From assembly GCF_013122565.1 (NCBI RefSeq), contig NZ_CP053258.1: 64,000 nucleotides of DNA, one strand, 5' to 3'. Source of the DNA: Escherichia coli (GTDB taxonomy: Bacteria > Pseudomonadota > Gammaproteobacteria > Enterobacterales > Enterobacteriaceae). Shown piece after piece: positions 14,933 through 61,730 of this stretch (position 1 is its first letter; the number at the start of each line of letters is the position of its first letter). The notes below the pieces were generated by a model. The model did no database searches. It was not told the DNA's origin and was given only the letters and a program-made list of their open reading frames with translations. The position numbers and the translations under genes are program-made.

Positions 14933-15036
14933 ACGTTCCTCCTTTATATGAACTCACCGGAGCAGGCTCCGGTGAGGTGTTGTGAACTTAAGTCTGGACG
15001 AAATGCCCGAAAACGAAAGTTTGAGGCGTAAAAAGC

Positions 15037-16200
15037 TTAGCGGGCGGCTTCGTATATACGGCGGCTGACATCCAGCGTAATGTCATGATTTTCGCCCAGT
15101 TGGGTCATGCCGTGCTCTTCCAGTTTTTTCAGCAAAGCCGGGATGGAGCTGCCGTCCAGACCGTAGTCGGAGAGGTGGGTCGGCACGCCTAATTGCTCAA
15201 AGAAATTGCGGGTTGCGGCAATCGCGGCGTCAATACGCTCATCGTCGGAACCTTCAGTGATGTTCCAGACGCGTTCAGCATATTGCAGCAGCTTAGCGCG
15301 CTTGGTATCGCGTTTTTCATTCCACAGTGCAGGCAGGATGATAGCCAGTGTTTGCGCGTGATCCAGACCGTGCATCGCAGTCAGTTCGTGGCCCAGCATA
15401 TGCGTTGCCCAGTCCTGCGGTACGCCAGCGCCGATCAAACCGTTCAGCGCCTGAGTCGCCGCCCACATGACGTTGGCGCGCACATCGTAGTTTTCTGGCT
15501 CTTTCAGGGCTTTCGGACCATCTTCGATCAGCGTCAACAAAATGCCTTCTGCGAAACGGTCCTGAATTTTGGCATCAACCGGTTTGGTAACATACTGTTC
15601 CACGGTGTGTACAAAGGCGTCCACTACGCCGTTAGCCACCTGACGCGGCGGCAGGGTGTAGGTATAAACCGGATCGAGCACGGCAAATACGGGCTGAACA
15701 TGGGCAGAATGGAACGCCTGCTTGTCGCCTGTGGTTTTACGGGAGATCACCGCACCGGCGTTGGATTCTGAACCGGTTGCTGGCAGCGTCAGCACACAGC
15801 CCATCGGGATGGCGCTTTTAATCTCTTTACCGCCCGTTTGCAGAATGTGCCACGGATCGATATTTTCCGGATAGTTAGCCGCTGCGGCGATAAATTTGGT
15901 GCCGTCCAGTACAGAACCGCCGCCAACCGCCAGCAGGAAAGTCACTTTTTGTTCGCGAACCAGTTTCACGGCGTTCATCAGCGTTTCATAAGCCGGGTTT
16001 GGCTCAATACCGCCAAATTCCAGCACGTCCATGCCTTTCAGGGCATCCAGAACTTGATCGAGAACGCCGGTTTTTTTCACGCTGCCGCCGCCGTAGGTAA
16101 TCAATACGCGAGCATCGTGAGGAATTTGTTCGCGTAAACCAGCGATTGCGCCTTTACCAAACAGAATGCGGGTTGGGGTGTGCAGATTAAAGTTGTTCAT
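15037..16200 (-). CDS. yqhD: NADPH-dependent aldehyde reductase (iron-containing alcohol dehydrogenase family)
   Basis: 387 aa from internal Met [17 protein letters not shown] (the ORF-track start at 16224 is 8 codons upstream). Confidence 0.92.
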
Positions 16201-36734: not shown

Positions 36735-37427
36735 CTAGTGATAACCACGCGCGGTCATAAAATCCGTAATCGCTTTTTCTGCATCAACCAGCACCTGTTC
36801 CAGTGGCTGATTGGCATCGATATCAACCAGTTGTGCACCACCAAAGGTTAACTGTGGCGTTATGGCAATCTTCCTCGCCAGCGATTCCCGTTTATGGTCG
36901 GGTTTACGCGCGCAGGCAACTTCAAGGTCAACATTGAGTTTGATGACCAGATCAGGCTTATGGCTCGCCATCCAGTGAAACGCTTTACGTTCCTGGCTTG
37001 CCAGCCATGAGACAAAACGACTACCTTCAACGTTAGGTGGGAACACCGTACCATCGTAAGCGCCAGGAATTTGGTCCTGAGGATAACGGTCGGTTAGAAC
37101 AATTAACCCGCGACGACGACAGGCAAGCATATGACGAAAGCGCAGTAAGCGACGGGCGACAAACGCTGTAATTACCAGCGCCGGAACTGGTCCTGGCAAT
37201 TTTTTTGCTGTTTTCACCTGATTTCGTTCAATTGTTTTATGTAAGGATTTTCCCATTAACGGTAATTTTGTCACTGCACGACCGACATTTCCGGCCTGTT
37301 TTCCTAAATGAACTCTTTCGGCAGCACCATATTTTTCGACAACGGTAATGAGATGTTCACACACCGTTGACTTGCCTGAACCATCGCTACCAATAACGGC
37401 AATTAATGGAGGTGTTATTGACTGCAT
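36735..37427 (-). CDS. yghT: P-loop NTPase (nucleoside/nucleotide-kinase-like fold) YghT
   Basis: 230 aa; Walker [10 protein letters not shown]. Confidence 0.85.
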
Positions 37428-37600
37428 GAATATATCCTTTAATTTAAATATTCATCCAAAATATTTATTTGGTTAATATGTTTTGATGAAAGCGTAAATC
37501 AGGTCAATGTCATAATTAACCATTGTCACAATAAGGTTGAACGGATATTCTGAGCACGGACCACGTAATATTCAATACATTATTTACTGCCGGGTTTTTC

Positions 37601-38314
37601 GTGAATCAACGTAATATGTCAATAATTAATTCCACGCCAGTGCGTGTTATTGCCATTGTAGGATGTGATGGTTCAGGTAAATCGACCCTCACGGCAAGCC
37701 TGGTAAATGAACTGGCAGCAAGAATGCCAACAGAACGCATTTATCTCGGGCAATCGTCCGGGCGAATTGGCGAATGGATTTCACAGCTCCCTGTTATTGG
37801 CGCACCTTTTGGGCGTTATCTGCGAAGTAAAGCGGCACATGTGCACGAAAAGCCCTCAACACCGCCTGGCAATATTACTGCGCTGGTTATCTATCTGCTT
37901 TCCTGCTGGCGGGCGTACAAGTTTCGCAAAATGTTGTGTAGAAGCCAGCAAGGCCATCTGCTCATCACCGACCGCTACCCGCAGGTTGAAGTGCCGGGTT
38001 TTCGCTTTGATGGCCCGCAATTGGCAAAAACCACGGGCGGTAACGGTTGGATAAAAATGTTAAGGCAGCGCGAGCTGAAGCTGTACCAATGGATGGCGTC
38101 TTATTTGCCCGTATTGTTGATTCGTCTTGGCATTGATGAACAAACCGCGTTTGCGCGTAAACCTGACCACCAACTGGCAGCGTTACAGGAAAAAATCGCC
38201 GTTACGCCGCAACTGACGTTCAACGGTGCCAGGATCCTTGAACTGGATGGTCGGCAACCAGCCGATGAAATTCTGCAAGCGTCACTACGCGCAATTCACG
38301 CCGCGCTTTCCTGA
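37601..38314 (+). CDS. yghS: P-loop NTPase YghS (paralogue of YghT/YghR)
   Basis: 237 aa; Walker A GCDGSGKST; shared ITDRYPQ motif. Confidence 0.85.
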   Translation: MNQRNMSIINSTPVRVIAIVGCDGSGKSTLTASLVNELAARMPTERIYLGQSSGRIGEWISQLPVIGAPFGRYLRSKAAHVHEKPSTPPGNITALVIYLLSCWRAYKFRKMLCRSQQGHLLITDRYPQVEVPGFRFDGPQLAKTTGGNGWIKMLRQRELKLYQWMASYLPVLLIRLGIDEQTAFARKPDHQLAALQEKIAVTPQLTFNGARILELDGRQPADEILQASLRAIHAALS

Positions 38315-38345
38315 TCACCAAAATGGATAGGGGATGATTTAACGA

Positions 38346-39104
38346 ATGGATGCACTACAAACACAAACTGTTAATAGTACAACCGCGCCGCAGCCCAACT
38401 ACATTCCGGGGCTGATTGCGGTGGTCGGGTGTGATGGCACCGGTAAATCCACACTGACCACTGACCTGGTGAAATCGCTGCAACAACACTGGCAAACTGA
38501 GCGGCGCTATCTGGGGCTGCTCTCGGGCGAAGACGGCGACAAAATCAAACGATTGCCGTTGGTTGGTGTCTGGCTCGAACGGCGACTGGCGGCCAAATCC
38601 TCGAAAACCCAAAGCATGAAAACCAAATCTCCAGCGCTATGGGCGGCGGTGATTATGTACTGCTTTTCGCTGCGAAGAATGGCGAATCTACGCAAGGTTC
38701 AGCGACTGGCGCAAAGTGGCGTTCTGGTGGTCAGCGATCGCTTCCCGCAGGCTGAAATTTCGGGCTTTTATTATGACGGACCGGGGATCGGCGTCGAACG
38801 TGCGACCGGGAAAATCAGCATGTTTCTGGCGCAGCGCGAACGGCGTTTATACCAAAAAATGGCGCAATACCGTCCTGAATTAATCATTCGTTTGGGGATT
38901 GATATTGATACTGCCATCTCCCGCAAGCCTGACCATGACTATGCCGAGCTGCAGGACAAAATCGGCGTCATGTCGACGATTGGCTATAACGGCACAAAAA
39001 TTCTTGAGATTGATTCCAGAGCGCCCTACAGCGAAGTGCTGGAACAGGCACAGAAGGCGGTTTCTCTGGTTGCCATCGTTTCTGACCGCCGAAGTTTAAC
39101 TTAA
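38346..39104 (+). CDS. yghR: P-loop NTPase YghR (paralogue of YghS/YghT)
   Basis: 252 aa; Walker A GCDGTGKST; VSDRFPQ motif. Confidence 0.85.
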   Translation: MDALQTQTVNSTTAPQPNYIPGLIAVVGCDGTGKSTLTTDLVKSLQQHWQTERRYLGLLSGEDGDKIKRLPLVGVWLERRLAAKSSKTQSMKTKSPALWAAVIMYCFSLRRMANLRKVQRLAQSGVLVVSDRFPQAEISGFYYDGPGIGVERATGKISMFLAQRERRLYQKMAQYRPELIIRLGIDIDTAISRKPDHDYAELQDKIGVMSTIGYNGTKILEIDSRAPYSEVLEQAQKAVSLVAIVSDRRSLT

Positions 39105-39149: not shown

Positions 39150-40499
39150 TTGGCGGGTTTTAACATCAAACATTGGTTTGCAGATGGCGCGTTTCGCACC
39201 ATTATTCGCAATAGCGCCTGGTTAGGCTCCAGTAATGTCGTGAGCGCCTTGCTGGGTCTGTTGGCGCTCTCGTGTGCCGGTAAAGGGATGACGCCCGCCA
39301 TGTTTGGCGTACTGGTGATTGTGCAATCGTACGCCAAGTCGATCAGCGATTTTATTAAGTTTCAGACATGGCAACTGGTGGTTCAGTACGGAACACCAGC
39401 ATTAACCAACAATAATCCGCAGCAATTCCGCAATGTCGTCTCATTTTCCTTCTCGCTGGATATCGTCAGCGGCGCGGTGGCGATTGTCGGCGGCATTGCC
39501 TTACTGCCATTCCTTTCCCATTCATTAGGTCTGGATGACCAAAGTTTTTGGCTGGCAGCGCTCTATTGCACGCTCATTCCTTCAATGGCTTCCTCCACGC
39601 CGACCGGCATTCTGCGTGCGGTAGATCGCTTCGATCTAATTGCTGTACAGCAAGCGACGAAACCTTTTCTGCGCGCAGCGGGGAGCGTCGTAGCCTGGTA
39701 TTTTGACTTTGGTTTTGCGGGTTTTGTTATCGCCTGGTACGCATCGAATCTGGTTGGCGGCACCATGTACTGGTGGTTTGCCGCGCGCGAATTACGTCGC
39801 AGAAATATCCATAACGCCTTCAAATTGAATCTGTTTGAGTCTGCCCGACACATTAAAGGCGCGTGGAGTTTTGTCTGGTCAACCAACATTGCCCACTCCA
39901 TCTGGTCGGCGCGTAACTCGTGCAGCACAGTGCTGGTGGGGATCGTGTTAGGACCCGCTGCCGCCGGGTTATTTAAAATCGCCATGACATTCTTCGATGC
40001 CGCCGGAACGCCAGCGGGTTTGCTGGGTAAAAGTTTTTACCCAGAGGTGATGCGTTTAGATCCGCGCACCACCAGACCGTGGTTGTTAGGTGTGAAGTCC
40101 GGTTTACTGGCGGGCGGAATTGGTATTCTGGTGGCACTCGCGGTGTTGATCGTCGGCAAGCCGCTCATTTCACTGGTGTTTGGTGTGAAGTATCTCGAAG
40201 CGTATGACCTGATTCAGGTGATGCTGGGCGCAATTGTGATTTCGATGCTGGGCTTCCCGCAGGAGTCATTGCTATTGATGGCGGGAAAACAGCGCGCTTT
40301 TCTCGTGGCGCAAACCATCGCCTCAATCGGCTACATCGTATTGCTGTTCATGTTCTGTCATCTGTTTGGCGTGCTGGGAGCAGCGTTTGCTTACTTCGGT
40401 GGGCAATGTCTGGATGTGGTGCTCTCGCTAATTCCAACCTTAAAGGCATTTTTTCAGCGCCATTCCTTGCTTTATAACGCAGCCGGAGAGAAATCCTGA
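39150..40499 (+). CDS. yghQ: Polytopic inner membrane protein, MOP/Wzx-like flippase superfamily (YghQ); start uncertain
   Basis: Long hydrophobic ORF; the track start at 39150 is TTG; first in-frame ATG near 39288; stop overlaps the start of the next gene. Confidence 0.7.
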   Translation: MAGFNIKHWFADGAFRTIIRNSAWLGSSNVVSALLGLLALSCAGKGMTPAMFGVLVIVQSYAKSISDFIKFQTWQLVVQYGTPALTNNNPQQFRNVVSFSFSLDIVSGAVAIVGGIALLPFLSHSLGLDDQSFWLAALYCTLIPSMASSTPTGILRAVDRFDLIAVQQATKPFLRAAGSVVAWYFDFGFAGFVIAWYASNLVGGTMYWWFAARELRRRNIHNAFKLNLFESARHIKGAWSFVWSTNIAHSIWSARNSCSTVLVGIVLGPAAAGLFKIAMTFFDAAGTPAGLLGKSFYPEVMRLDPRTTRPWLLGVKSGLLAGGIGILVALAVLIVGKPLISLVFGVKYLEAYDLIQVMLGAIVISMLGFPQESLLLMAGKQRAFLVAQTIASIGYIVLLFMFCHLFGVLGAAFAYFGGQCLDVVLSLIPTLKAFFQRHSLLYNAAGEKS

Positions 40500-41323
40500 T
40501 GATGAGAAAATATTTCCCGCTTGAGGCGAGCGAGCGTCTATTTGTTGCGATTGAAGAAGATGATGTCGTTGATGCACAGGTCAGTTTGCCGCCGACTATC
40601 GCACTAAGTTGTACCACCGAAATCATCCATGATAATTACGCGTTATGCCTGCAATTCTGGCTCAATGGCGTCAATCGCCAGGAGTTACTGCGTTTAATAT
40701 GCAAACAGGCCAAAGGCGATGAGCTGACTGCTGATGAGCGCAAACAATTTAAATACATGCGAGCGCGCTACAAGCACCTGCGTTTTGCGCAACGGCTGTA
40801 TTTAAAAAAGCATCAGGCCGGATTTTTATTCGGCAAAACGACCGTTTTTCTGGGACGTTTTCAGGACGGATTTCGTAACGGTAAGAAAAATATTGTGTCG
40901 TATTACGGCAACCTGTTACGAATTTATTTAAGCTCTCCGGTCTGGTCGTTGGTGAACTATTCATTACGCCATAGCCAGTTAGAAAGCGTAAGCGGTTTTA
41001 TTGCCTATCGGCAACAGCAAATGCATACCCTGAAAGAGATTATTGCCAAACCGCGACTAACCGGCAGGGAATTTCATGATGTGCGAAAAATCATCAGCCA
41101 GCAGGTTTCTTATTACGACACCTTAAGATCGCTTGATCCTGAAAATAAAGAGGCGTTACAGATTTCCCGCTTCCTCGCCGCCATTAATGGCCTGATGGGG
41201 GATAAACACGACGACATGGTGGCGGATGATATGGAAAACCGCCAGTCGTATGATGCACCGGTGGCGCTGGATAGCGATATTCGTCAGCGCTTAGAGCTGC
41301 TGATTTCGCGTTTTCCGCTATAA
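40499..41323 (+). CDS. Hypothetical protein (no recognisable domain), translationally coupled to yghQ
   Basis: 274 aa; ATG overlaps the yghQ TGA (ATGA-type junction). Confidence 0.55.
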   Translation: MMRKYFPLEASERLFVAIEEDDVVDAQVSLPPTIALSCTTEIIHDNYALCLQFWLNGVNRQELLRLICKQAKGDELTADERKQFKYMRARYKHLRFAQRLYLKKHQAGFLFGKTTVFLGRFQDGFRNGKKNIVSYYGNLLRIYLSSPVWSLVNYSLRHSQLESVSGFIAYRQQQMHTLKEIIAKPRLTGREFHDVRKIISQQVSYYDTLRSLDPENKEALQISRFLAAINGLMGDKHDDMVADDMENRQSYDAPVALDSDIRQRLELLISRFPL

Positions 41324-41331
41324 CCGGAGCA

Positions 41332-41895
41332 ATGATGTCATCTCGTTTGATTATTGCGCTGATTATCATGCTCTTAGCCCCGGGTGTGCAGGCACACAAT
41401 TTCGTCACTGGCAAAACGGTTACCCCCGTTTATATCCAGGAAGGCGGCGAGCTGCTTCTGAATAGCGACGACGAAATTCACTACCAAAAGTGGAACAGCA
41501 CACAATTGGCGGGAAAAGTTCGCATTATTCAGTATATCGCCGGGCGTAAGTCGGCGAAGAAAAAGAACTCACTGTTAATTAAAGCGGTTGAAGCGGCAAA
41601 CTTTCCGCAGGATCGTTTTCAGCCCACAACCATCGTGAACACCGATGATGCCATCTTTGGTACCGGCTATTTTGTCGTTGGCAAAATCGAAAAAAATAAA
41701 CGCCGCTATCCGTGGGCGCAATTCGTTATTGACGGCAATGGACTGGGACGCATTGCCTGGCGCTTGCCGGAGCAGAGTTCAACCATTCTGGTGCTGAATA
41801 AAGCCGGGCAAATTCAGTGGGCAAAGGACGGCAGCCTGACGCCGGAAGAGGTAGATCATGTCATTGCGTTGGCGCAGAAACTGATCAATGAATAA
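41332..41895 (+). CDS. Periplasmic protein, YtfJ-like family (tentative)
   Basis: 187 aa; signal peptide LIIALIIMLLAPGVQA; size and composition resemble the YtfJ family. Confidence 0.5.
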   Translation: MMSSRLIIALIIMLLAPGVQAHNFVTGKTVTPVYIQEGGELLLNSDDEIHYQKWNSTQLAGKVRIIQYIAGRKSAKKKNSLLIKAVEAANFPQDRFQPTTIVNTDDAIFGTGYFVVGKIEKNKRRYPWAQFVIDGNGLGRIAWRLPEQSSTILVLNKAGQIQWAKDGSLTPEEVDHVIALAQKLINE

Positions 41896-41925: not shown

Positions 41926-42996
41926 ATGAAGCTGGTTGAACACTACATCATGCGTGGTACGCGCCGTTTGGTGCTGATTATCGTCGGTTTTCTGATCTTT
42001 ATTTTCGCCAGCTACTCCGCACAGCGTTATCTGACCGAAGCGGCAAATGGGACATTAGCACTTGATGTTGTGCTGGATATCGTTTTTTACAAGGTGCTGA
42101 TTGCACTGGAGATGTTGTTACCTGTTGGACTGTATGTGTCAGTTGGCGTGACGCTAGGGCAGATGTATACCGACTCGGAAATCACAGCTATCTCTGCGGC
42201 GGGGGGCAGTCCGGGACGCTTGTACAAAGCCGTTCTTTATCTGGCGATACCGCTAAGTATTTTTGTCACCCTTCTGTCGATGTATGGTCGTCCGTGGGCT
42301 TATGCGCAGATTTATCAACTGGAGCAGCAGTCGCAGTCGGAGCTGGATGTTCGCCAGTTGCGGGCAAAGAAATTTAACACTAACGATAACGGACGAATGA
42401 TCCTTTCGCAGACGGTTGATCAGGATAATAATCGCCTGACTGACGCGCTGATTTATACTTCTACTGCCAATCGAACCCGCATTTTCCGCGCCCGTTCGGT
42501 TGATGTGGTTGACCCATCTCCCGAGAAACCGACCGTTATGTTGCACAACGGCACCGCCTATCTTCTCGATCATCAGGGGCGTGACGACAACGAACAGATC
42601 TACCGTAATCTGCAATTACATCTGAATCCGCTGGATCAAAGCCCTAATGTCAAACGCAAAGCGAAATCGGTCACGGAGCTGGCGCGCTCCGTCTTTCCAG
42701 CCGATCATGCCGAACTGCAATGGCGACAAAGCCGTGGCCTGACCGCATTGTTGATGGCGCTGCTGGCCATTTCATTAAGTCGGGTAAAACCGCGGCAGGG
42801 GCGATTTTCAACGTTATTGCCACTGACGTTGCTGTTTATTGCCATTTTTTATGGCGGCGACGTCTGCCGTACGCTGGTGGCTAACGGCGCGATTCCTCTC
42901 ATTCCTGGTTTGTGGTTAGTACCCGGACTCATGCTAATGGGCCTGCTGATGCTGGTTGCACGCGACTTCACTTTGCTGCAGAAATTTTCCCGATGA
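41926..42996 (+). CDS. LptF/LptG-family (YjgP/YjgQ) permease, LptF-like
   Basis: 356 aa; LGQMYTDSEIT and KPRQGRFSTLLP resemble LptF LGKLYTESEIT / NPRQGRVLSMLP; TM-periplasmic domain-TM architecture. Confidence 0.7.
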   Translation: MKLVEHYIMRGTRRLVLIIVGFLIFIFASYSAQRYLTEAANGTLALDVVLDIVFYKVLIALEMLLPVGLYVSVGVTLGQMYTDSEITAISAAGGSPGRLYKAVLYLAIPLSIFVTLLSMYGRPWAYAQIYQLEQQSQSELDVRQLRAKKFNTNDNGRMILSQTVDQDNNRLTDALIYTSTANRTRIFRARSVDVVDPSPEKPTVMLHNGTAYLLDHQGRDDNEQIYRNLQLHLNPLDQSPNVKRKAKSVTELARSVFPADHAELQWRQSRGLTALLMALLAISLSRVKPRQGRFSTLLPLTLLFIAIFYGGDVCRTLVANGAIPLIPGLWLVPGLMLMGLLMLVARDFTLLQKFSR

Positions 42997-44072
42997 ATGT
43001 TTTCAGTCGCTATTTAATCCGTCATCTCTTTCTCGGTTTTGCCGCCGCCGCAGGGCTATTGCTGCCGCTTTTTACCACCTTCAACCTGATTAACGAACTG
43101 GATGATGTCAGCCCGGGCGGTTATCGCTGGACTCAGGCGGTGCTGGTGGTGCTGATGACCTTACCGCGTACACTGGTCGAACTTTCGCCGTTTATCGCAT
43201 TATTGGGAGGGATTGTTGGCCTGGGGCAGTTATCGAAAAACAGTGAGCTTACCGCCATTCGCAGCACTGGGTTTTCTATCTTCCGTATTGCACTGGTGGC
43301 GCTGGTTGCCGGGATATTGTGGACTGTTTCGTTAGGCGCGATAGATGAGTGGGTGGCGTCGCCGTTGCAGCAACAGGCGCTGCAAATCAAATCGACCGCC
43401 ACCGCGTTGGGGGAGGACGATGACATTACCGGCAATATGCTGTGGGCCAGGCGCGGCAATGAATTTGTGACGGTGAAATCGCTGAACGAGCAGGGCCAGC
43501 CGGTGGGCGTGGAGATATTTCATTATCGCGACGATCTCTCGCTCGAATCCTACATTTATGCACGCAGTGCCACCATTAAAGACGACAAAATGTGGAGCCT
43601 GCATGGTGTGAATCATAAAAAATGGCTTAACGGTAAAGAAACGCTGGAAACATCAGATAATCTTGCCTGGCAATCGGCCTTCACCAGTATGGATCTTGAA
43701 GAGCTATCGATGCCGGGGAATACTTTTTCTGTCCGTCAGCTTAATCATTACATCCATTATTTGCAGGAAACCGGGCAACCCAGCAGCGAATACCGCCTTG
43801 CACTGTGGGAAAAACTGGGGCAACCCATCCTGACCCTGGCGATGATTTTGCTGGCTGTGCCGTTTACCTTTAGCGCCCCGCGCTCGCCAGGGATGGGTAG
43901 CCGTCTCGCTGTAGGCGTCATCGTTGGCTTACTCACCTGGATCAGCTATCAAATCATGGTCAATCTGGGGTTGCTATTTGCGTTGAGCGCACCTGTTACC
44001 GCGCTCGGTTTACCGGTAGCGTTTGTACTGGTGGCGTTGAGCCTGGTGTATTGGTATGACAGACAACATTAA
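42993..44072 (+). CDS. LptF/LptG-family permease, LptG-like
   Basis: 359 aa from ATG overlapping the upstream stop; NHYIHYLQETGQ...RSPGMGSRL resembles LptG NYVKYLKSSGQ...RSVPMGVRV. Confidence 0.7.
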   Translation: MNVFSRYLIRHLFLGFAAAAGLLLPLFTTFNLINELDDVSPGGYRWTQAVLVVLMTLPRTLVELSPFIALLGGIVGLGQLSKNSELTAIRSTGFSIFRIALVALVAGILWTVSLGAIDEWVASPLQQQALQIKSTATALGEDDDITGNMLWARRGNEFVTVKSLNEQGQPVGVEIFHYRDDLSLESYIYARSATIKDDKMWSLHGVNHKKWLNGKETLETSDNLAWQSAFTSMDLEELSMPGNTFSVRQLNHYIHYLQETGQPSSEYRLALWEKLGQPILTLAMILLAVPFTFSAPRSPGMGSRLAVGVIVGLLTWISYQIMVNLGLLFALSAPVTALGLPVAFVLVALSLVYWYDRQH

Positions 44073-44106
44073 ACCCGCCGTGGCGCAACACCACGGCGGG
44101 CTCACA

Positions 44107-45195
44107 TTACTGCTTCAGAGTAGCAAATGCCTGAATGATGGTATCGATTTGCTCACGACTGTGGGCAGCGTTTACGCTACAGCGCAGCAGCGTGATGCCT
44201 GCAGGCGCGGCAGGTGGCAGGATAAGATTCACATAAACGCCCAGCGAAATAAGCTCGCGCCAGATGCGTAAACCTTCCTCTTTCGAACCGATTATTACCG
44301 GCACTACCGGACTAATATGTGAACTTAACTCATAACCCAGTTTTTGCAGACCGTCATACAGATGGTTGGCGTTATCCATCAGTTTTTGCCGCAGCTCTGG
44401 TTGTGTGGCAATGGTTCTTAACGACGAGCGCACGGTCGCAATGCAGGACGGAGAAGGAGAGGCGGTAAAAATATACGGGCGGCTGCCGTAGCGCAGCACT
44501 TCCATCGCTTCCGAACCGACAGCAAAACCGCCAATCGAGGCCAGACTTTTACTGAAGGTACCAACGATAATATCCACATCATCTTCAACGCCAACGGCTT
44601 CAGCCAGTCCGCGCCCCGTTGCGCCTAACACGCCAAACGAATGCGCTTCATCGACAATCAAATAACCACCGAGACGACGTTTGATATCAACAATTTCCGC
44701 TAACGGCGCAACGTCACCGAGCATGCTGTAGATACCCTCAACGATGATAATCGCCTCTTTCGCCCGTTCACCGAGGCGAACCATGCGCCGTTCCAGATCT
44801 TTAGCATCGTTATGGCGGAAACGAATAATTTCCGCGCCACCGAGAGAACAGGCGTCATAAATACTGGCGTGGCTGTCGGCATCCAGTAACACCACGGCGT
44901 TATGGTCGGCAAGTGCGCTGATGACGCCTAAATTAGCGGTATAACCGGTTGAAAAAACGATAGCGGTAGGGCGATTGAAAAACTCGGCAATCTCTTTCTC
45001 TAACGCCAGGTGCGGCGCATAACTGCCGTTTGCCATACGAGAACCGGTGGTGCCGGTGCCTTGGGCCGCTAACGCTGCCTGACCTTCGGTGGCGGAATAC
45101 ACTTCATCAATACAGGTGCCAAACGGTGTTAACCCGTTGTCACTAAATTGCAGTCGCTCGCCAGCAAGGCGCGCATATTTATCGTATAGCCCCAT
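44107..45195 (-). CDS. PLP-dependent alpha-oxoamine synthase (BioF/Kbl/serine palmitoyltransferase family)
   Basis: 362 aa; DEAHSFGVLGATGRG and GTFSKSLASIGGF (PLP-lysine motif). Confidence 0.75.
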   Translation of the reverse strand: MGLYDKYARLAGERLQFSDNGLTPFGTCIDEVYSATEGQAALAAQGTGTTGSRMANGSYAPHLALEKEIAEFFNRPTAIVFSTGYTANLGVISALADHNAVVLLDADSHASIYDACSLGGAEIIRFRHNDAKDLERRMVRLGERAKEAIIIVEGIYSMLGDVAPLAEIVDIKRRLGGYLIVDEAHSFGVLGATGRGLAEAVGVEDDVDIIVGTFSKSLASIGGFAVGSEAMEVLRYGSRPYIFTASPSPSCIATVRSSLRTIATQPELRQKLMDNANHLYDGLQKLGYELSSHISPVVPVIIGSKEEGLRIWRELISLGVYVNLILPPAAPAGITLLRCSVNAAHSREQIDTIIQAFATLKQ

Positions 45196-45443
45196 TATTT
45201 ATTCTCCAGCCATGGAAGTAGAGTTTCCATTAATTGCGCAGGGGTTTTGACATCCAGCAGAATATTAATAGGAATGGAAATATCGAATCTGTCTTCCAGC
45301 ATCATTAAGAGATCCATCACTTTGATCGACTCCAGGCCAAGATCGTTGACGAGATCGCTGTCGGGCTTAATTTCCACACCGTTTTCGACCAAATCCTGTA
45401 AACAGGAAAGGATGTAATCCATTACTATTTCACGATTTACCAT
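45195..45443 (-). CDS. Acyl carrier protein
   Basis: 82 aa; phosphopantetheine attachment-like motif DLGLESIK; stop overlaps the downstream start. Confidence 0.7.
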   Translation of the reverse strand: MVNREIVMDYILSCLQDLVENGVEIKPDSDLVNDLGLESIKVMDLLMMLEDRFDISIPINILLDVKTPAQLMETLLPWLENK

Positions 45444-45474
45444 AGAAACGTTAACACACCTTTAAACAAGACAA

Positions 45475-46389
45475 TCAAAATAGCCCGTTGCGTAATGCGT
45501 GTTCCAGGCTAATCCCGGGAAACCAATTAATATCTTCAGAAATACGGTTATTATTTGCCGACCAGTCGGCGTGGGTTAATTCACGAATTTTCGAGCGGGT
45601 CAGCATAGGTTCTTTACCTGCCAGGCGACTCAACGCAGTACTGATATCCGCAAGGCAGGTGAGTACCGGCAGAGGAATGCCAACCATCCGCACAGAACCA
45701 CAACGGGCTTCGGCGGCAAGCTGTCGTACGCGTTGCCAGTCATAGCCGCCAGCGACGCCATCGCATAATTCATAGGTTTGCGTCTGTACAGTTTCGGCGC
45801 TTAACCACTGACCCACGGCTTGCGCGAAATCGGTGACGTGCAGGAAAGAGAGCTGTGTATCTGGCGCACCAAGTCGTGGCAGCAGGCCGCGCAGCATCCA
45901 GTCAAACAGCGGTTTTAACTCTTTATCGCCTGGACCATACACGGCTGTCGGGCGAAAAACGCCCAGCGTAATTTCATCAGCCATTGCAGTCAGCCGTTGT
46001 TCGGCGACGTGTTTGGAATTTGCGTACCAGGAGAGTTCGGGATGGCGCGCCGCCAGCGAAGAGATAAACAGAAAACGTTGGCAAAAGCCGCTCTCTTTTG
46101 CCGCTTGCATCAGGCGCAGGCTGCCGTCAACGTTACAGTGGGTAAAAATCTCTTCTTTGTGTCCGCGCACTTGCCCGGCGCAATGGACCACCGCGCTGGC
46201 TCCGGCAACCAGTTCGCTAAGTGAATGAGTATCTTCCAGCGAACCGCGCACCCAGGTGAGATTGTCATTGACGTGAGCGCGGGCAGTACGCGTCAATGCG
46301 CGAACGTGAAAGCCGCGGGCGAGCAGGTTATCGATAATATATTTACCGATAAACCCGGTAGCGCCCGTCACCGCGACAGTTTGATTCAT
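45475..46389 (-). CDS. NAD(P)-dependent epimerase/dehydratase-family reductase
   Basis: ~304 aa from Met MNQTVAVTGATGFIGKYI (Rossmann GxTGxxG); ATG overlaps the stop of the upstream ligase gene; the ORF track extends to 46599. Confidence 0.7.
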   Translation of the reverse strand: MNQTVAVTGATGFIGKYIIDNLLARGFHVRALTRTARAHVNDNLTWVRGSLEDTHSLSELVAGASAVVHCAGQVRGHKEEIFTHCNVDGSLRLMQAAKESGFCQRFLFISSLAARHPELSWYANSKHVAEQRLTAMADEITLGVFRPTAVYGPGDKELKPLFDWMLRGLLPRLGAPDTQLSFLHVTDFAQAVGQWLSAETVQTQTYELCDGVAGGYDWQRVRQLAAEARCGSVRMVGIPLPVLTCLADISTALSRLAGKEPMLTRSKIRELTHADWSANNNRISEDINWFPGISLEHALRNGLF

Positions 46390-48107
46390 GCCAGGGATTC
46401 CTGCACATGAAGACTGGCAGCATAAGCCTTCTGATAACGTTTTTTCGCTTCCGCACGGGCAGGCTTGCCGGAGGACGTTCGGGGAATACTGTGGGGCGGC
46501 AACAGATCGATAGCCGCGGTCACGCCAAATTCGCTTTGGATCCGTGCCGCCAGCGCGTGGATAAGCTGCCCGCGACGTTCTTCGTCGCTGATCCGACACT
46601 GGATCTGCAAAATGATTTTTTCCTGGGCGGTAACAAAAGCAATCGCATCGCCAGAATGAATTTCCGGTTCCTGTTCCGCAATATATTCAATATCCTGCGG
46701 CCAGATATTACGGCCACGAATAATAATCAGATCTTTAATGCGTCCGGTGACATACAGATAACCGTCCAGCAGATAACCGAGGTCGCCGGTGTCTAACCAG
46801 CCCGTCGCGGCAATCTCGTCTTGCGAAGCCTGGTCGCCAAAGTAACCGCTCATCAGGCTAGGGCCGGAGATGCAAATATGGCCTACCACACGTTCCGCGA
46901 CAGGTATACCTGCTTCATTGCGGATTTCAATGCCATGTTCCGGCAACGCTTTGCCGCAGTTGACGAAAGTCGATACGGCGCGTGTCTCTGCACCCGGCGC
47001 GACGGCTTTACCCTGATATTCGAGGATGTCGCGATCCACTTCGTTAACCACAACCCCGGAGGCTTCATCAGAGAAGCTGACAGCCAGCGCATTTTCTGCC
47101 AGTCCGTAGCACGGCATGAAAGTTTTATTGTCAAAGTTAACCTGACGGAAACATTCAGCGAATTGATGGAGTTGTTCTGCGGAGATGGGTTCTGCACCAA
47201 TACCAGCGACGCGCCAGGAGGAAAGATCCAGTTCAGCGAGATCTTTTTCATTCACGCGGCGCTGGCACAATTCATAGCCAAACGGCGGCGCAACGGAAAC
47301 GGTGCCGCGATTTTTACTGATCAATTTAAGCCATTGCAGAGGACGCATGGCAAAATCCTGAGTGCGCAAATAATCTACTGAAAGCTGCGTGGCGACAGGG
47401 GTCAGGAGAAAGCCGACCAGTCCCATATCATGGTAGAAAGGCAGCCAGGAGACGCAGCGGTCGCCAGGGCGTAATTTAATGCCATCGTGGCTTATAGCAC
47501 GTAGATTAGCCATCACTTCGCGATGGGTGATAATGACGCCACGGGGAAAACGGGTGCTGCCGGAGGTGTACTGGAGGTAGGCGATATCGTTCGGAACTGG
47601 ACGCTGGAGCGCAACATCGGCTTCCGGTAATGCCTTAAACCAGGCGTGGCTTAAAACATGTAATTCGGGATTGTTATGCGTCGCGGCATTGACCAGTGGC
47701 AACCACTCATCACCAGTGATAATGGCTGCGGGCTGGCAACTTGCCAGTAAACCCTGCAGTTTGGCGCTCCAGGAATCCCGCTGACCGACGCCCATTGGAA
47801 TCGCCAACGGGACGGCGACTAAGCCGGCATACTGGCAGGCAAAAAAAGCCTCTACGAACCCGCTACTGGTTTCGGCAATCAGCGCCACGCGATCGCCTTT
47901 TTTCAGGTTCAGCGATAACAACCGCTTCGCACCAGCTTCGGCACGCGCTTTTAACGTCTGATATTCCAGTTGATCTTCAAGTTGGCAACGTCTGTCATAA
48001 AAATTCATTCCAGCGCTACTCAGAGCGGCGTAGTCCAAAGCATCAACCAGCGTTGGAAAATCGGCATAGCGCATAGGTAGGGAATGCGTAAAGATTTTAT
48101 TAGACAT
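46386..48107 (-). CDS. Fatty acyl-AMP ligase / acyl-ACP synthetase (adenylate-forming superfamily)
   Basis: ~573 aa from Met MSNKIFTHSL; AMP-binding motifs YTSGSTRFPRGV, GYGLAE; C-terminal SSGKPAR. Confidence 0.75.
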   Translation of the reverse strand: MSNKIFTHSLPMRYADFPTLVDALDYAALSSAGMNFYDRRCQLEDQLEYQTLKARAEAGAKRLLSLNLKKGDRVALIAETSSGFVEAFFACQYAGLVAVPLAIPMGVGQRDSWSAKLQGLLASCQPAAIITGDEWLPLVNAATHNNPELHVLSHAWFKALPEADVALQRPVPNDIAYLQYTSGSTRFPRGVIITHREVMANLRAISHDGIKLRPGDRCVSWLPFYHDMGLVGFLLTPVATQLSVDYLRTQDFAMRPLQWLKLISKNRGTVSVAPPFGYELCQRRVNEKDLAELDLSSWRVAGIGAEPISAEQLHQFAECFRQVNFDNKTFMPCYGLAENALAVSFSDEASGVVVNEVDRDILEYQGKAVAPGAETRAVSTFVNCGKALPEHGIEIRNEAGIPVAERVVGHICISGPSLMSGYFGDQASQDEIAATGWLDTGDLGYLLDGYLYVTGRIKDLIIIRGRNIWPQDIEYIAEQEPEIHSGDAIAFVTAQEKIILQIQCRISDEERRGQLIHALAARIQSEFGVTAAIDLLPPHSIPRTSSGKPARAEAKKRYQKAYAASLHVQESLA

Positions 48108-48477
48108 ATACACCACGAAAAAATTGGATATCAAAAATAAAATGACAATAATGCGGTGGATTATATAGGCATAAAAGATAAATGAGATAGTATTTTCATC
48201 AGTGTGAAAATGAACATTGATTTAAATAATAGGTTTGGTTTTGTTGTTTTTATTGTGAATGATATTTAATTTATGAATATATTAAGAAGAAGCCTTGTCC
48301 GGTCGCCTTAAATCGACAAAAGGCATTGTGGCGCTTCTGTGTAGTCTCTGACCTTATCTTAATCATTAATAAATACTATTTATTCTTTATTTGTATTCAT
48401 TGGGTTGATTATTAAGATGCCGTTCGTTGCTGTTGTAACCTGTTTGTCACCGTTAATTATTTGTTATCCACAGAGAT
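48108..48477. promoter_or_regulatory. AT-rich divergent intergenic control region between the ligase operon and yghO
   Basis: 370 bp of strongly AT-rich sequence with A/T tracts between divergent gene starts. Confidence 0.5.
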
Positions 48478-49620
48478 ATGGAATGCGATCTGCTGATGAT
48501 TAAAATTGAAAAAGTAATTAATAAAAATGACCTTAAGGCATTTATCGCTTTTCCGTCATCACTTTATCCCGACGATCCAAACTGGATACCCCCTTTATTC
48601 ATTGAACGCAACGAGCATTTGTCTGCGAAAAATCCGGGGACGGACCATATCATCTGGCAGGCGTGGGTGGCAAAAAAAGCGGGGCAGATAGTTGGGCGTA
48701 TTACCGCGCAAATAGATACCTTGCACCGCGAGCGTTACGGCAAAGATACCGGTCATTTCGGCATGATTGACGCCATTGATGATCCGCAGGTTTTTGCCGC
48801 GTTGTTTGGCGCAGCGGAAGCGTGGTTGAAGTCACAAGGTGCAAGTAAGATCAGCGGTCCTTTCAGCCTGAATATCAATCAGGAAAGCGGATTACTGATT
48901 GAAGGTTTCGATACACCACCCTGTGCGATGATGCCGCACGGTAAACCGTGGTATGCCGCGCATATTGAACAATTGGGTTATCACAAAGGCATTGATTTAC
49001 TGGCGTGGTGGATGCAGCGAACCGATCTCACTTTCTCTCCGGCGCTAAAAAAACTGATGGATCAGGTGCGCAAAAAGGTGACCATTCGCTGCATCAATCG
49101 CCAGCGGTTTGCCGAAGAGATGCAGATCCTGCGTGAGATTTTCAACTCTGGCTGGCAGCACAACTGGGGATTTGTGCCGTTTACCGAACATGAATTCGCG
49201 ACCATGGGCGACCAACTTAAATATCTGGTGCCGGACGATATGATCTACATCGCTGAGATTGATTCTGCACCCTGCGCGTTTATTGTCGGCTTGCCGAACA
49301 TCAACGAGGCGATTGCCGATCTGAACGGATCGCTCTTTCCCTTCGGCTGGGCAAAATTGCTGTGGCGTTTGAAAGTCAGCGGTGTGCGAACTGCGCGAGT
49401 ACCGCTGATGGGCGTGCGCGACGAGTATCAGTTCAGCCGCATCGGCCCGGTAATTGCGCTGTTATTGATTGAAGCCTTACGCGATCCGTTTGCCCGCCGG
49501 AAGATCGATGCGCTGGAGATGTCATGGATCCTCGAAACCAATACAGGCATGAATAACATGCTGGAACGCATTGGGGCGGAGCCGTACAAGCGTTACCGAT
49601 TGTATGAAAAGCAGATTTAA
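48478..49620 (+). CDS. yghO: YghO, acyl-CoA N-acyltransferase-like protein (intact)
   Basis: 380 aa uninterrupted ORF; position next to glcC; alternative start at MIKIEK (48496). Confidence 0.7.
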   Translation: MECDLLMIKIEKVINKNDLKAFIAFPSSLYPDDPNWIPPLFIERNEHLSAKNPGTDHIIWQAWVAKKAGQIVGRITAQIDTLHRERYGKDTGHFGMIDAIDDPQVFAALFGAAEAWLKSQGASKISGPFSLNINQESGLLIEGFDTPPCAMMPHGKPWYAAHIEQLGYHKGIDLLAWWMQRTDLTFSPALKKLMDQVRKKVTIRCINRQRFAEEMQILREIFNSGWQHNWGFVPFTEHEFATMGDQLKYLVPDDMIYIAEIDSAPCAFIVGLPNINEAIADLNGSLFPFGWAKLLWRLKVSGVRTARVPLMGVRDEYQFSRIGPVIALLLIEALRDPFARRKIDALEMSWILETNTGMNNMLERIGAEPYKRYRLYEKQI

Positions 49621-59478: not shown

Positions 59479-60975
59479 ATGGAAGAAAACACAAGGCAGC
59501 GTACAGAAAATTATATTTCAGCAAAAAACCAGCATCCCGCCTGGATACTCCTTGCCACTCGCCGTGCTCCACTGGTATTGAGTTGCCTGAAAACGCTTTT
59601 TGAAAAATCACATGATGGCATTCCCCTTGAGGAAGCTATTCAGTCTCTTTCCAGTATTCTCATTGAGCATGTGAGTCAGGAACAGTATGACATTAATCAG
59701 GACAATCCATTTCTTCAGGCCAGTCGTGAACTGCGGGAGTGGATTAAACGCCGTTTAATTGTCGAACGGGATGGCCGTATTTTTGCTACCGATGCGCTTG
59801 AGGTCGCGATTACGTTTGTAGAGTCTCTGGATAATCGTTTTATGACCTCTACGGCTTCCCGTTTGTCCACCGTTCAGCGAGAAATTGAAAACCTGGAAAC
59901 ACGGCTTAATCCTAACCCGGCAAACCGGGTTGCAACCTTACGTCGTCGTATTTCTGAACTGGAACGCGAACTACAGGAGGCAGAAGCCGGGCATATTGAG
60001 GTGCTGGAAACGCACCAGGCGGTTGAGCATATTCGTGATGTCTACAATTTAGCTTCCAGCCTGAGGGCTGACTTTCGTCGTGTTGAAGACTCCTGGCGTG
60101 AGGCTGACCGCGCTCTTCGCCAATCCATTATTGGTGAGCAATATCATCGTGGCGATATAGTAGAACGCCTGCTCAACGATCAGGACGCGCTGCTTAATAC
60201 GCCGGAAGGAAGAGTTTTCGACAGCTTTCAGCAACAGCTCCGTCAATCTTCTGAACTTAAAGCGATGAGTGAACGATTACGTGTGATCCTTAGCCATCCT
60301 TCTGCTTCTGATGCGCTTAACCGTCTACAGCGTCACGATCTGCGCTGGCTGGTTAAACGCTTGGTCGATGAATCGCAAACTGTCCTCCAGGCTCGCGCCC
60401 GTAGCGAGCGTGATGTCCGTGGTTTCATGAAAACCGGTCTTGCTGCTGAACATCATCGTGTTGGTCATTTGCTTAATGAGTTTCTGAATCTGGCGTTAAA
60501 ACTCGACTGGCAGCGCCAGATGATTCGTAAACAAGAGGTGCCGCTACCTGCCGTTGGTGTGGCGGTAACAGGCATCCCCGCTATTGAACGTTTACGTTTT
60601 AAAGAAGTGGATGATGAAGCAGAGCAGACGTTGGATCTCAGTAATCATGCGGCAGATTTAACGCAGATTGGCGATGATTTCTGGGATGCCTTCAATGGCC
60701 TCGATCGTGAGGTGTTGATTCAGCAGACGTTGCAGCTTCTGGCAAAAGAGAATCGCCCCGTTGGTTTAGCTGAACTGGCGGAGCTGTTGCCCCCGGCTCA
60801 CGATCTCGAAACATTCGCCGTCTGGATTGGTATGGCGAGAGAAGCGGGTATTGAGGTTATTGATTCACAACGTGAATTTGCTGAGCTTAGTGATGGGGAA
60901 GGTCGCCGCTGGCGATTTAATCTGCCCACCACTGGTCTGGAAAGTCAGGCATTAATGGATATCGATTGGGAGTAA
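59479..60975 (+). CDS. jetA: Wadjet JetA-like protein (MukF-like kleisin, DUF3375-type)
   Basis: 498 aa; first of three genes in MukF/MukE/MukB-like order; size and predicted coiled-coil content match JetA. Confidence 0.55.
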   Translation: MEENTRQRTENYISAKNQHPAWILLATRRAPLVLSCLKTLFEKSHDGIPLEEAIQSLSSILIEHVSQEQYDINQDNPFLQASRELREWIKRRLIVERDGRIFATDALEVAITFVESLDNRFMTSTASRLSTVQREIENLETRLNPNPANRVATLRRRISELERELQEAEAGHIEVLETHQAVEHIRDVYNLASSLRADFRRVEDSWREADRALRQSIIGEQYHRGDIVERLLNDQDALLNTPEGRVFDSFQQQLRQSSELKAMSERLRVILSHPSASDALNRLQRHDLRWLVKRLVDESQTVLQARARSERDVRGFMKTGLAAEHHRVGHLLNEFLNLALKLDWQRQMIRKQEVPLPAVGVAVTGIPAIERLRFKEVDDEAEQTLDLSNHAADLTQIGDDFWDAFNGLDREVLIQQTLQLLAKENRPVGLAELAELLPPAHDLETFAVWIGMAREAGIEVIDSQREFAELSDGEGRRWRFNLPTTGLESQALMDIDWE

Positions 60976-60980
60976 CAGGT

Positions 60981-61730
60981 ATGGCGGGCTTTTTTGACAA
61001 GCTGATTAACCGGAGCGTTACTGCAAATGCAGGCTGTGAACCAGAACCATCGGATGAGGAGGTTACCGATGAGTCGGTTGAAGATAGTTTGGCCAGTAGT
61101 GAAACGCGGACGCTACAAAAAATACGCGAAGCGACTCAGGAATTGCTCAAATACGGCCTGCTGGAAGAGGCCAGTAAGCCTAATCTGTACCGCATCGTAC
61201 TGAGCCATCCTGAAGAGGTTACTCGTATTCTGGAGCCTCTCGATCTGGATATCGGCATTGATGAGATCCGTGGCCTGCTGTATGTCAAAGTCAGGCTTGA
61301 TGAAACGCCTGCGCAGGATGAATGGGCCCACCCTCTGGTGAGACGGCAACGACTTAACCTGGAACAATCTTTATTAGTTGCCATACTGCGCCAACATTTT
61401 GTGGCCTGGGAGCAGGAAAGCGGAACCGGTGCCAGTCAGGCACAGATCGCCATCGATGATCTTCTCCCTCAACTCCAGATTTATCTTGGCGACCCGGGCA
61501 GTGAATCAAAAGAACGCACCCGATTGCTTACCCTGCTGGATCAATTAAAGGGGCATGGGCTGGTGACGTCGCCGGATGCACATGAGCGGATCGTCATCCG
61601 TCCGATCATTGCTCATCTTGCCGATCCGATCAATCTTCAGGCATTACTGGCATGGCTGCGAGAGCAAATTGCCCAGCAAACCTCTCCAAATGACGCGCCA
61701 GAAAAGGATAGCAGCGAGGAGGACGTATGA
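60981..61730 (+). CDS. jetB: Wadjet JetB-like protein (MukE-like, DUF4194-type)
   Basis: ~249 aa from ATG at 60981 with GGGAG RBS; acidic; the ORF track starts at TTG 60966. Confidence 0.55.
   Translation: MAGFFDKLINRSVTANAGCEPEPSDEEVTDESVEDSLASSETRTLQKIREATQELLKYGLLEEASKPNLYRIVLSHPEEVTRILEPLDLDIGIDEIRGLLYVKVRLDETPAQDEWAHPLVRRQRLNLEQSLLVAILRQHFVAWEQESGTGASQAQIAIDDLLPQLQIYLGDPGSESKERTRLLTLLDQLKGHGLVTSPDAHERIVIRPIIAHLADPINLQALLAWLREQIAQQTSPNDAPEKDSSEEDV

Follow-up and report, generated by a model that had tools for sequence, protein, structure and literature searches.

A dihydroceramide-type gene cluster of Escherichia coli with a serine palmitoyltransferase gene very probably inactivated by an 84-bp deletion

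Introduction

What do the five genes at 44107..49620 of the window, a 64-kb stretch of DNA from one E. coli strain, produce, and is their pathway still at work there? A first-pass annotation read them as an intact sphingolipid-type biosynthesis operon whose product was unknown. The cluster, however, is already known, being the aasR-epi/cerR-acpR-spt operon of E. coli with the divergent yghO (aca/bcerS), present in the literature since 2022 and in RefSeq annotation. Its BL21(DE3) version, ECD_02850-ECD_02854 (yghO/aca, aasR, epi, acpR, spt), was characterised by Padilla-Gómez et al. 2022 (Front Microbiol 13:961041; PMC9386255), where earlier reviews of the cluster are cited. Nor can the product be called unknown, since in that work the first product behaves as 3-oxo-sphinganine, and the RefSeq gene name is already spt. 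The parallel that had been drawn with bacterial sphingolipid synthesis is sound, in that the published BL21 experiments, the scores of the synthase against serine palmitoyltransferases (SPTs), the GNAT fold of YghO and the synteny all agree. Judged from its sequence, the region is, with considerable confidence, the E. coli representative of the proteobacterial ("Rhodobacteria-type") dihydroceramide cluster, and its operon is very probably dead at the first committed step in this strain.

Organization of the locus

All five open reading frames were found at the coordinates and on the strands first given for them. Four lie on the minus strand: aasR for a fatty acyl-AMP ligase, or dedicated acyl-AcpR synthetase (46386..48107); an epi/cerR-type gene for an extended SDR, proposed to act as the pathway's 3-keto reductase (45475..46389); acpR for a dedicated acyl carrier protein (45195..45443); and an spt allele that has lost 84 bp in frame and encodes 362 aa instead of 390 aa (44107..45195). 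On the plus strand lies yghO (48478..49620), an aca/bcerS-type N-acyltransferase gene. Translational coupling of the operon had been claimed throughout; it is borne out by the 4-nt overlap (ATGA) of the ligase stop with the SDR start and by the 1-nt overlap of the acpR stop with the spt start, but not between the SDR gene and acpR, which are 31 nt apart. In BL21(DE3) the genes occupy the same locus, between glcC and yghQ, in the same order, and the proteins are 96.7-100% identical. No near-identical complete genome was found, the top matches being 98.5% for the cluster and 99.2% for glc.

The stretch separating the divergent genes aasR and yghO (48108..48477) is AT-rich, with a GC content of about 0.40-0.44 where the flanks have about 0.52, and is presumed to hold promoters; a promoter scan gave weak consensus matches only, in a count not above that of shuffled sequence. 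A GC-rich hairpin with a 16-bp stem (44070..44104), picked up by a terminator-like scan where the lptG-like gene and spt converge, likely serves as a bidirectional terminator. An Rfam scan of 36-50.7 kb returned one sub-threshold fluoride-riboswitch match, antisense within yghQ, which was dismissed as chance.

Ligase, reductase and carrier protein

AasR scores 874 bits against NF006624 (cut-off 600) and carries the adenylation motifs YTSGST, YGLAE, TGDLG and SSGK. The start equivalent to that of RefSeq is at 48074 (562 aa); the alternative ATG at 48107 (573 aa) is plausible, since in the longer protein the match to the family profile already begins at residue 6. The protein is identical to BL21 AasREc (ECD_02851) at 553 of 562 residues (98.4%), and AasREc, with its cognate AcpR and Spt, supports production of 3-oxo-sphinganine (PMC9386255).

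The SDR shows GATGFIG at residue 9, Ser110/111 and Y122-x-x-x-K126. Among NCBIfam models it found generic SDR/epimerase matches, the best being HpnA-like at 92 bits, far under the cut-off; there is no curated model for CerR. Its proposed role draws on these motifs, on synteny, and on identity to BL21 ECD_02852 (294 of 304 residues), which is itself 34% identical to Caulobacter CC_1164 (CCNA_01222; E 7e-38; PMC9386255, Table S2). AcpR, encoded directly upstream of spt, matches ACP-family profiles and has Ser39 within a GLES motif; all 82 of its 82 residues are identical to those of BL21 AcpREc (ECD_02853), which carries 4'-phosphopantetheine, as indicated by beta-alanine incorporation (PMC9386255).

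Family of the synthase

The family of the synthase was assigned by NF047599 and by alignments. Against this serine palmitoyltransferase equivalog, with a cut-off of 500 bits, the window protein scores 535 bits and the intact allele 600 bits over the full profile. Along with the NF006624 score, the ACP-type matches and the extended-SDR motifs, this result confirms the families to which the operon products had first been assigned. It also places the synthase with the SPTs, as foreseen in the argument that a dedicated carrier and ligase do not suit a BioF/Kbl housekeeping role. The window protein keeps TFSKS at residue 213 (Lys216), DADSHAS at 105 and VDEAHS at 181.

It is extremely improbable that the enzyme is instead a housekeeping or signalling alpha-oxoamine synthase of the BioF, Kbl or CqsA kind, which would make biotin precursors, aminoacetone or a CAI-1-like autoinducer. 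These enzymes do share with Spt the PLP fold-type I alpha-oxoamine synthase superfamily and its PLP chemistry, and all of their models match significantly. None of them, however, reaches the curated cut-off, whereas the score for the SPT equivalog exceeds the one set for it: the window and intact proteins reach 314 and 335 bits for bioF, 274 and 298 for Kbl, and 209 and 220 for CqsA, whose cut-off is 428, so that the CAI-1-like signal first raised as an alternative is not favoured. By the curated cut-offs, the three identities are effectively refuted. The comparison with solved structures points the same way, in that the SPTs of Sphingomonas paucimobilis and Sphingobacterium multivorum (PDB 2jg2, 3a2b, 8guh) score highest among solved relatives, with 377 and 264 bits, the Sphingomonas enzyme leading Kbl (about 203), BioF (175-181) and CqsA (123) by more than 170 bits. 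Scores thus put the synthase in the SPT clade and not in a cluster with BioF or Kbl, from which it also differs in genomic context and demonstrated product. The two solved SPTs align with intact E. coli Spt over practically the whole length and have in common with it the catalytic Lys of GTFSKS, the His and the Asp. E. coli Spt differs in its preference for acyl-AcpR over acyl-CoA (PMC9386255).

YghO as a candidate ceramide synthase

The structure of YghO was predicted because the protein matched no Pfam or NCBIfam model. The AF2 model (pLDDT 95, pTM 0.92) found tandem GNATs as its top Foldseek matches with probability 1.0 (2wpw, E 1e-15; 5kf1, TM 0.73), so that YghO, described in the first-pass annotation as acyltransferase-like, does possess an acyltransferase fold, of the tandem-GNAT kind. 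As for orthology, the BL21 ortholog of YghO is 44% identical to Caulobacter CC_1154 (E 1e-107, 98% coverage; PMC9386255, Table S2). CC_1154/CCNA_01212 is a bacterial ceramide synthase (bCerS) validated genetically and biochemically (PMC11087976, a summary by the laboratory of Stankeviciute et al. 2022). Based on homology, synteny and predicted fold, YghO is proposed to be a ceramide synthase of the bCerS type.

Synteny was surveyed by a genome scan for YghO homologs with patterns from a 10-sequence alignment, a 52-sequence alignment being insufficiently conserved for patterns. Presence was counted within a 10-kb radius at 46 long loci from other species of many taxa, and adjacency at 64 loci; Caulobacter was absent among the best 80 loci. 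Homologs of Spt, AcpR, the SDR and the ligase each lie within 10 kb of YghO homologs at 40-42 of the 46 loci (Spt 40, SDR 41, ligase 42), and LptF/LptG homologs at 28. At 52 of the 64 loci the ligase gene is divergent and immediately upstream of that for the YghO homolog. Such deep synteny of a dedicated ACP, a ligase and a bCerS-type gene with the synthase stands further against a BioF, Kbl or CqsA identity.

An 84-bp deletion in spt

Compared with the intact gene, spt in the window has lost 84 bp in frame, corresponding to residues 37-64 (28 aa). Intact spt contains CCGAAGG at gene positions 107 and 191, 84 bp apart, and the window retains one copy, which forms the deletion junction at 45083..45089 on the minus strand. 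The deleted segment holds the active-site motif G-T-N-N-Y-L-G-L, so NNYLGL is absent from the window protein; in terms of the Sphingomonas enzyme, the equivalent of SpSPT residues 59-86, including GTYNYMGM, is missing. Over the remaining aligned residues the protein is identical to BL21 Spt at 360 of 362 positions, but BL21 spt has the segment, which is present in 4,095 of 5,426 complete E. coli genomes. A 70-mer spanning the junction occurs in none of the 5,426, as expected if the lesion is recent, and the exact truncated protein occurs in two public assemblies. Among complete genomes the deletion is therefore private to this strain, and, to judge by what it removes, it very probably inactivates Spt.

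It could be argued that Spt tolerates the loss and that the sphingolipid pathway still functions in this strain, since the reading frame is kept, the score of 535 bits lies above the NF047599 cut-off even so, the protein has retained its PLP-binding Lys together with the His and Asp motifs, and the other cluster genes are intact and near their BL21 versions. This is quite unlikely. Not one of 55 homologs has a gap across the lost segment, five residues of which are the same in all of them (G49, N51, N52, Y53 and G55), and the equivalents of lost residues in S. multivorum SPT, Asn52 and Tyr54, belong to the hydrogen-bond network round PLP-serine (PMC10196870). The alignment to NF047599, moreover, begins at profile position 66, leaving the first 65 positions of the model unaligned. 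The absence of the allele from complete genomes also weighs against tolerance, as does the independent loss of the cluster in K-12 and ST131 described below. The gene in the window is thus spt by descent and probably encodes no working enzyme. The pathway, first taken to be intact, is most likely blocked here at its first step, the 28 missing residues including the invariant NNYLGL motif.

Distribution and decay

Of 5,426 complete E. coli genomes, 4,047 contain at least 80% of the 11.5-kb region, so about three quarters of them carry genes for a lipid class not generally credited to E. coli. K-12-type genomes have an IS5 at the locus, in agreement with the first-pass annotation, which erred as to the pseudogene: RefSeq flags yghQ as such and annotates yghO as a CDS. 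In an ST131 strain, the cluster is broken by IS1 beside the kps locus. Since the cluster has been destroyed independently in K-12 and ST131, its loss is evidently tolerated. Repeated decay, by IS5, by IS1, and by a slippage deletion of 84 bp in the window, suggests that the pathway is dispensable or conditionally costly. In the literature, no report was found of sphingolipids that E. coli makes from its own chromosomal cluster. With empty vectors, BL21 shows no such product on published TLCs (PMC9386255), and the cluster may accordingly be silent or conditional.

Companion genes and the larger module

The conserved module extends leftwards beyond the five genes. On the plus strand it comprises yghQ for a MOP-type flippase (39150..40499), genes for a 274-aa protein (40499..41323) and a YtfJ-family protein (41332..41895), and paralogs of LptF (41926..42996; TIGR04407, 318 bits) and LptG (42993..44072; TIGR04408, 308 bits). 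Farther left are three genes for P-loop kinase-like proteins with weak dTMP-kinase-like matches: yghT on the minus strand (36735..37427), and yghS (37601..38314) and yghR (38346..39104) on the plus strand. In Enterobacterales, yghQ and the genes for the 274-aa and YtfJ-like proteins are co-located with the spt module, and YghQ-like genes adjoin spt at four non-enteric loci too. Paralogs of yghR/S/T adjoin the spt/yghO module in shuffled order in Mangrovibacter, Erwinia, Rosenbergiella, Pseudomonas marginalis, a Methylotenera MAG and a betaproteobacterial MAG, and this co-travel suggests that the trio belongs to the pathway. The LptF and LptG paralogs are, by analogy, candidate components of lipid extraction and transport at the inner membrane.

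The 274-aa protein has 343 homologs, the named ones all from Enterobacterales, with no Pfam family and no sequence relative in the PDB. Its model is all-helical (pLDDT 93), and Foldseek gave a weak match to CHAD (E 0.13, TM 0.44). YghS found P-loop-level noise only in the PDB. Homology of YghR/S/T to CpgB was considered and rejected, CpgB having an LCB5/DAG-kinase domain and not a P-loop.

It is possible, if rather doubtful, that the native final product is not plain dihydroceramide, being a phosphorylated or decorated sphingolipid or one with a non-serine long-chain base, and that YghR/S/T and the 274-aa and YtfJ-like proteins supply the extra steps. In distant lineages YghR/S/T remain neighbours of the module despite rearrangements, the other two genes are syntenic across Enterobacterales, a DgkA-type lipid kinase gene directly follows yghO in Serratia and Pantoea, and relaxed SPT substrate specificity is the subject of a section in PMC9386255. 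Yet YghR/S/T match generic P-loop/dTMP-kinase models weakly and are not of the CpgB family, the CHAD likeness is weak, and many spt/yghO loci have none of these genes. The co-travelling genes (YghR/S/T, 274-aa, YtfJ-like, LptF/G paralogs) are candidates for head-group modification and for the route that carries bacterial sphingolipids to the outer membrane. A wider proposal is put forward tentatively: YghR/S/T, the 274-aa and YtfJ-like proteins, YghQ and LptF/LptG together would turn ceramide into a hitherto unobserved sphingolipid, perhaps a phosphorylated one, and export this to the outer membrane of E. coli, by a head-group route unrelated to Caulobacter CpgABC. In laboratory lineages and in some pandemic ones the module appears to have been lost or silenced several times over.

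Proposed pathway and comparison with known systems

In the proposed pathway, AasR would adenylate a fatty acid and load it onto the dedicated carrier AcpR, and the PLP enzyme Spt would condense acyl-AcpR with L-serine to 3-oxo-sphinganine; for the BL21 orthologs, these steps were shown by co-expression and extract assays (PMC9386255). Based on homology and synteny, YghO, the tandem-GNAT bCerS homolog, would add the N-acyl chain, and the SDR, a CerR/Epi homolog, would reduce the 3-keto group, yielding dihydroceramide; the order of N-acylation and 3-keto reduction is disputed in the literature. By analogy with Caulobacter, transport of the lipid toward the outer membrane is probably the task of the YghQ flippase and the LptF/LptG paralogs. 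In the window strain, the deletion between the CCGAAGG repeats would stop Spt, and the other genes are intact.

The cluster of Caulobacter crescentus, CC_1152-CC_1168, includes spt (CC_1162), acpR (CC_1163), epi/cerR (CC_1164), aasR (CC_1165) and aca/bcerS (CC_1154), as well as genes for LptC2/F2/G2 and a flippase (CC_1166); for LptF2/LptG2, sphingolipid transport has been proposed (PMC11324152). Native sphingolipid production is demonstrated in Caulobacter, whereas the E. coli cluster is known from its genes and from the assays of BL21 orthologs. The two clusters have the five core genes in common, and both contain second copies of LptF/LptG and a flippase. Caulobacter has an LCB5-type ceramide kinase (CpgB), of which the E. 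coli cluster shows none, and LptC2, of which no counterpart was recognised in E. coli; the E. coli cluster has instead the P-loop trio YghR/S/T, the 274-aa protein and the YtfJ-like protein.

Organization of the cluster

All five open reading frames that the first-pass annotation assigned to a sphingolipid/ceramide-type operon and its YghO neighbour were verified in the window, in both coordinates and strands. The fatty acyl-AMP ligase (aasR, 46386..48107, minus strand, with a RefSeq start equivalent to 48074), the SDR of 304 aa (45475..46389, minus), the acyl carrier protein of 82 aa (45195..45443, minus) and the alpha-oxoamine synthase (spt, 44107..45195, minus) follow one another, and yghO (48478..49620, plus) diverges from the ligase across an AT-rich intergenic region of 370 bp. 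Translational coupling of the four genes was largely borne out: stop and start overlap by 4 nt between ligase and SDR and by 1 nt between ACP and synthase, whereas SDR and ACP are separated by 31 nt. Between the synthase and the gene upstream that converges with it sits a hairpin with a 16-bp stem (44070-44104). With pitB, yghT/S/R and yghQ on the left and glcC and glcDEF on the right, the window falls in the yghQ–yghO–glc part of the E. coli chromosome.

Two further features were observed at a distance from the cluster. At 5850-8729 (plus strand), ftsP and ygiQ, direct neighbours in BL21, are separated by an insertion with two ORFs of 474 and 469 aa; the ORFs gave no NCBIfam or PADLOC match, and of the 5,426 complete E. 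coli genomes only 13 carry this DNA (~97% identity), with the pair annotated as hypothetical proteins. The glc operon is followed downstream by the first part of a Wadjet defence system (59479-61730, plus strand, continuing rightwards), with JetA at 901 bits and JetB at 386 bits.

Assignment of the enzymes

The cluster is already known and annotated, so it cannot be regarded as new. RefSeq labels the window synthase "spt: serine palmitoyltransferase" and its neighbours "acyl carrier protein", "NAD-dependent epimerase/dehydratase family protein", "fatty acyl-AMP ligase" and "protein YghO", and exactly this cluster was studied in BL21(DE3) by Padilla-Gómez et al. in 2022 (PMC9386255). Of the 5,426 complete E. 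coli genomes, 4,047 carry 80% or more of the 11.5-kb region.

The proposed sphingolipid pathway was upheld by the scores of the synthase, the fold of YghO and the published work on BL21. The window synthase scores 535 bits against the serine palmitoyltransferase equivalog NF047599 (cut-off 500), and the intact E. coli Spt is closest among solved structures to the SPTs of Sphingomonas (377 bits) and Sphingobacterium (264 bits). A role as BioF, Kbl or CqsA, the outcome that would have spoken against the proposal, is effectively excluded: the window protein stays below the curated cut-offs for the bioF (314), Kbl (274), CqsA (209) and ALAS (206) models, the solved structures of Kbl (~203 bits), BioF (175-181) and CqsA (123) are more distant than those of the SPTs, and the published product of the E. 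coli synthase is a different one. The ligase exceeds the cut-off of fatty acyl-AMP ligase NF006624 (874 bits against 600) and retains the adenylation core motifs. Among curated family models, the ACP matched generic ACP families, with Ser39 within a GLES motif, and the SDR matched generic epimerase/SDR families only, with the motifs GATGFIG, Ser110/111 and Y122xxxK126.

YghO matched none of the Pfam or NCBIfam models. Its AlphaFold model, built from a 52-sequence alignment (pLDDT 95, pTM 0.92), predicts the acyltransferase fold expected of it, with the tandem-GNAT acyltransferases 2wpw, 5kf1, 7q3a, MshD and Eis as best structural matches (probability 1.0, E down to 1e-15). Serratia, Pantoea, Pluralibacter, Erwinia, Citrobacter and other genera have orthologs of ~80% identity; in every ortholog context examined, yghO is transcribed divergently from the same operon of ligase, SDR, ACP and spt, in differing chromosomal neighbourhoods. 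The family comprises 1,128 clusters at E ≤ 1e-30, and its distant members adjoin spt operons or LptF/LptG paralogs. Shimwellia pseudoproteus has, in addition to a cluster-linked copy at another locus, a second YghO paralog (74% identity) with no spt-cluster genes within 10 kb.

Proposed pathway and deletion in spt

In the proposed pathway, AasR would charge holo-AcpR with a fatty acid, and Spt would condense acyl-AcpR with L-serine to 3-oxo-sphinganine, as co-expression and extract assays showed for the BL21 proteins, which are near-identical. Homology, fold and synteny suggest that YghO N-acylates and the SDR reduces, the two steps together leading to dihydroceramide. Which of N-acylation and reduction comes first is disputed, and the core enzymes are counted as three, Spt, bCerS and CerR, in the summary of the Klein laboratory (PMC11087976).

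The pathway as a whole had looked intact, which does not hold for the window. Its spt measures 1089 bp versus 1173 bp in reference genomes, and in the alignment 84 bp are cleanly missing in frame, which costs Spt its residues 37-64 (EGRIGNKKVILAGTNNYLGLTFNHDAIA). Intact spt carries the heptamer CCGAAGG twice, at positions 107 and 191 of the gene, spaced by 84 bp, while the window retains a single copy at 45083-45089, the pattern left by slippage or microhomology-mediated deletion. Against NF047599, the window protein aligns only from model position 66 onwards, whereas the intact Spt covers the full model at 600 bits. The deletion is real and no reading error, since the exact 362-aa protein is found in two public assemblies. 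A 70-mer spanning the junction had no match in the 5,426 complete E. coli genomes, 4,095 of which contain the 84-bp segment.

Among 55 homologs of Spt in other species (53-98% identity), none has a gap in the lost segment, and G49, N51, N52, Y53 and G55 are invariant. In structures of the S. multivorum SPT, the equivalent Asn52 and Tyr54 contribute to a network of hydrogen bonds that surrounds the PLP–serine moiety (PMC10196870). That the shortened Spt still functions is unlikely because the lost motif is invariant. Most likely, then, this strain has lost the activity of the first committed step and the chain is broken at Spt, while the remaining cluster genes are all intact; the finding specific to the window would be a strain-private, presumably inactivating spt deletion.

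Two other lesions of the cluster were found. In K-12-type genomes, IS5 takes the place of the whole stretch from a truncated yghQ to yghO. In the E. coli ST131 strain 5506, spt is a pseudogene cut by IS1 beside the kps capsule locus (14108-15809 of the locus sequence), and the acpR-to-yghO part is no longer adjacent to it. Together with the 84-bp deletion these make three independent lesions, which suggests that E. coli can do without the pathway under many conditions.

An extended module

The conserved module is larger than the five genes first considered. A scan of species-representative genomes for YghO homologs gave the best 80 loci, spanning Enterobacterales, Pseudomonas, Nitrococcus, Nitrosomonas and Nitrospira, to Gemmatimonadetes. 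Of the 46 loci that offer 19 kb of sequence or more, the following numbers have a homolog within 10 kb of YghO: the ligase (42), the SDR (41), AcpR and Spt (40 each), the LptF and LptG paralogs (28), YghQ (15), the 274-aa protein (12), YghT (11), YghS (10), YghR (10) and a YtfJ-like protein (10). The ligase lies immediately upstream of YghO and divergent in 52 of 64 loci.

YghT, YghS and YghR (36735-39104) are three paralogous P-loop kinase-like proteins with weak dTMP-kinase or P-loop matches only, and a literature search found no assigned function for them. Similar genes adjoin the module, in rearranged order, in distant lineages: Mangrovibacter, Erwinia, Rosenbergiella, Pseudomonas marginalis, a Methylotenera MAG and a betaproteobacterial MAG. 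They were rejected as homologs of the ceramide kinase CpgB, which is LCB5-type. The 274-aa protein (40499-41323, plus strand), translationally coupled to yghQ, has 343 homologs, the named ones all from Enterobacterales, and no known-family match, PDB sequence relative or Pfam family; its confident model is all-helical with a weak CHAD fold match, and many Arg, Lys and His residues are invariant. The LptF/LptG paralogs (41926-44072) are named lptF and lptG (LPS export permeases) by RefSeq because they exceed the equivalog cut-offs; as second copies linked to sphingolipid genes, they probably bear over-specific names.

By analogy, the lipid could reach the outer membrane via YghQ and the LptF/LptG paralogs and be modified by YghR/S/T and other companion genes. 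The native product might be a decorated sphingolipid and not plain ceramide, a reading compatible with the pathway proposed here. The remaining interest lies in whether E. coli natively makes sphingolipids and in the role of the conserved companion genes.

Comparison with known systems

The BL21(DE3) system comprises aasR (ECD_02851), epi (ECD_02852), acpR (ECD_02853), spt (ECD_02854) and aca, which is yghO (ECD_02850); AcpREc carries 4'-phosphopantetheine, and SPTEc favours acyl-AcpR over acyl-CoA or acyl-AcpP (PMC9386255). Kinases and transport are absent from the discussion in that paper. The window proteins are identical to those of BL21 at 82/82 residues for AcpR, 553/562 for AasR, 294/304 for the SDR and, over aligned residues, 360/362 for Spt. 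Serratia (11354-11716) and Pantoea (11242-11604, both in their own locus sequences) have a DgkA-type (DAGK_prokar) lipid kinase gene directly downstream of yghO, a position at which E. coli lacks one. In Caulobacter, YghO corresponds to CC_1154 (44% identity, E 1e-107) and the SDR to CC_1164 (34% identity, E 7e-38), as listed in Table S2 of PMC9386255. The Caulobacter cluster includes LptC2, LptF2 and LptG2 with a flippase, proposed for sphingolipid transport (PMC11324152), and the E. coli cluster likewise holds second copies of LptF and LptG together with a flippase.
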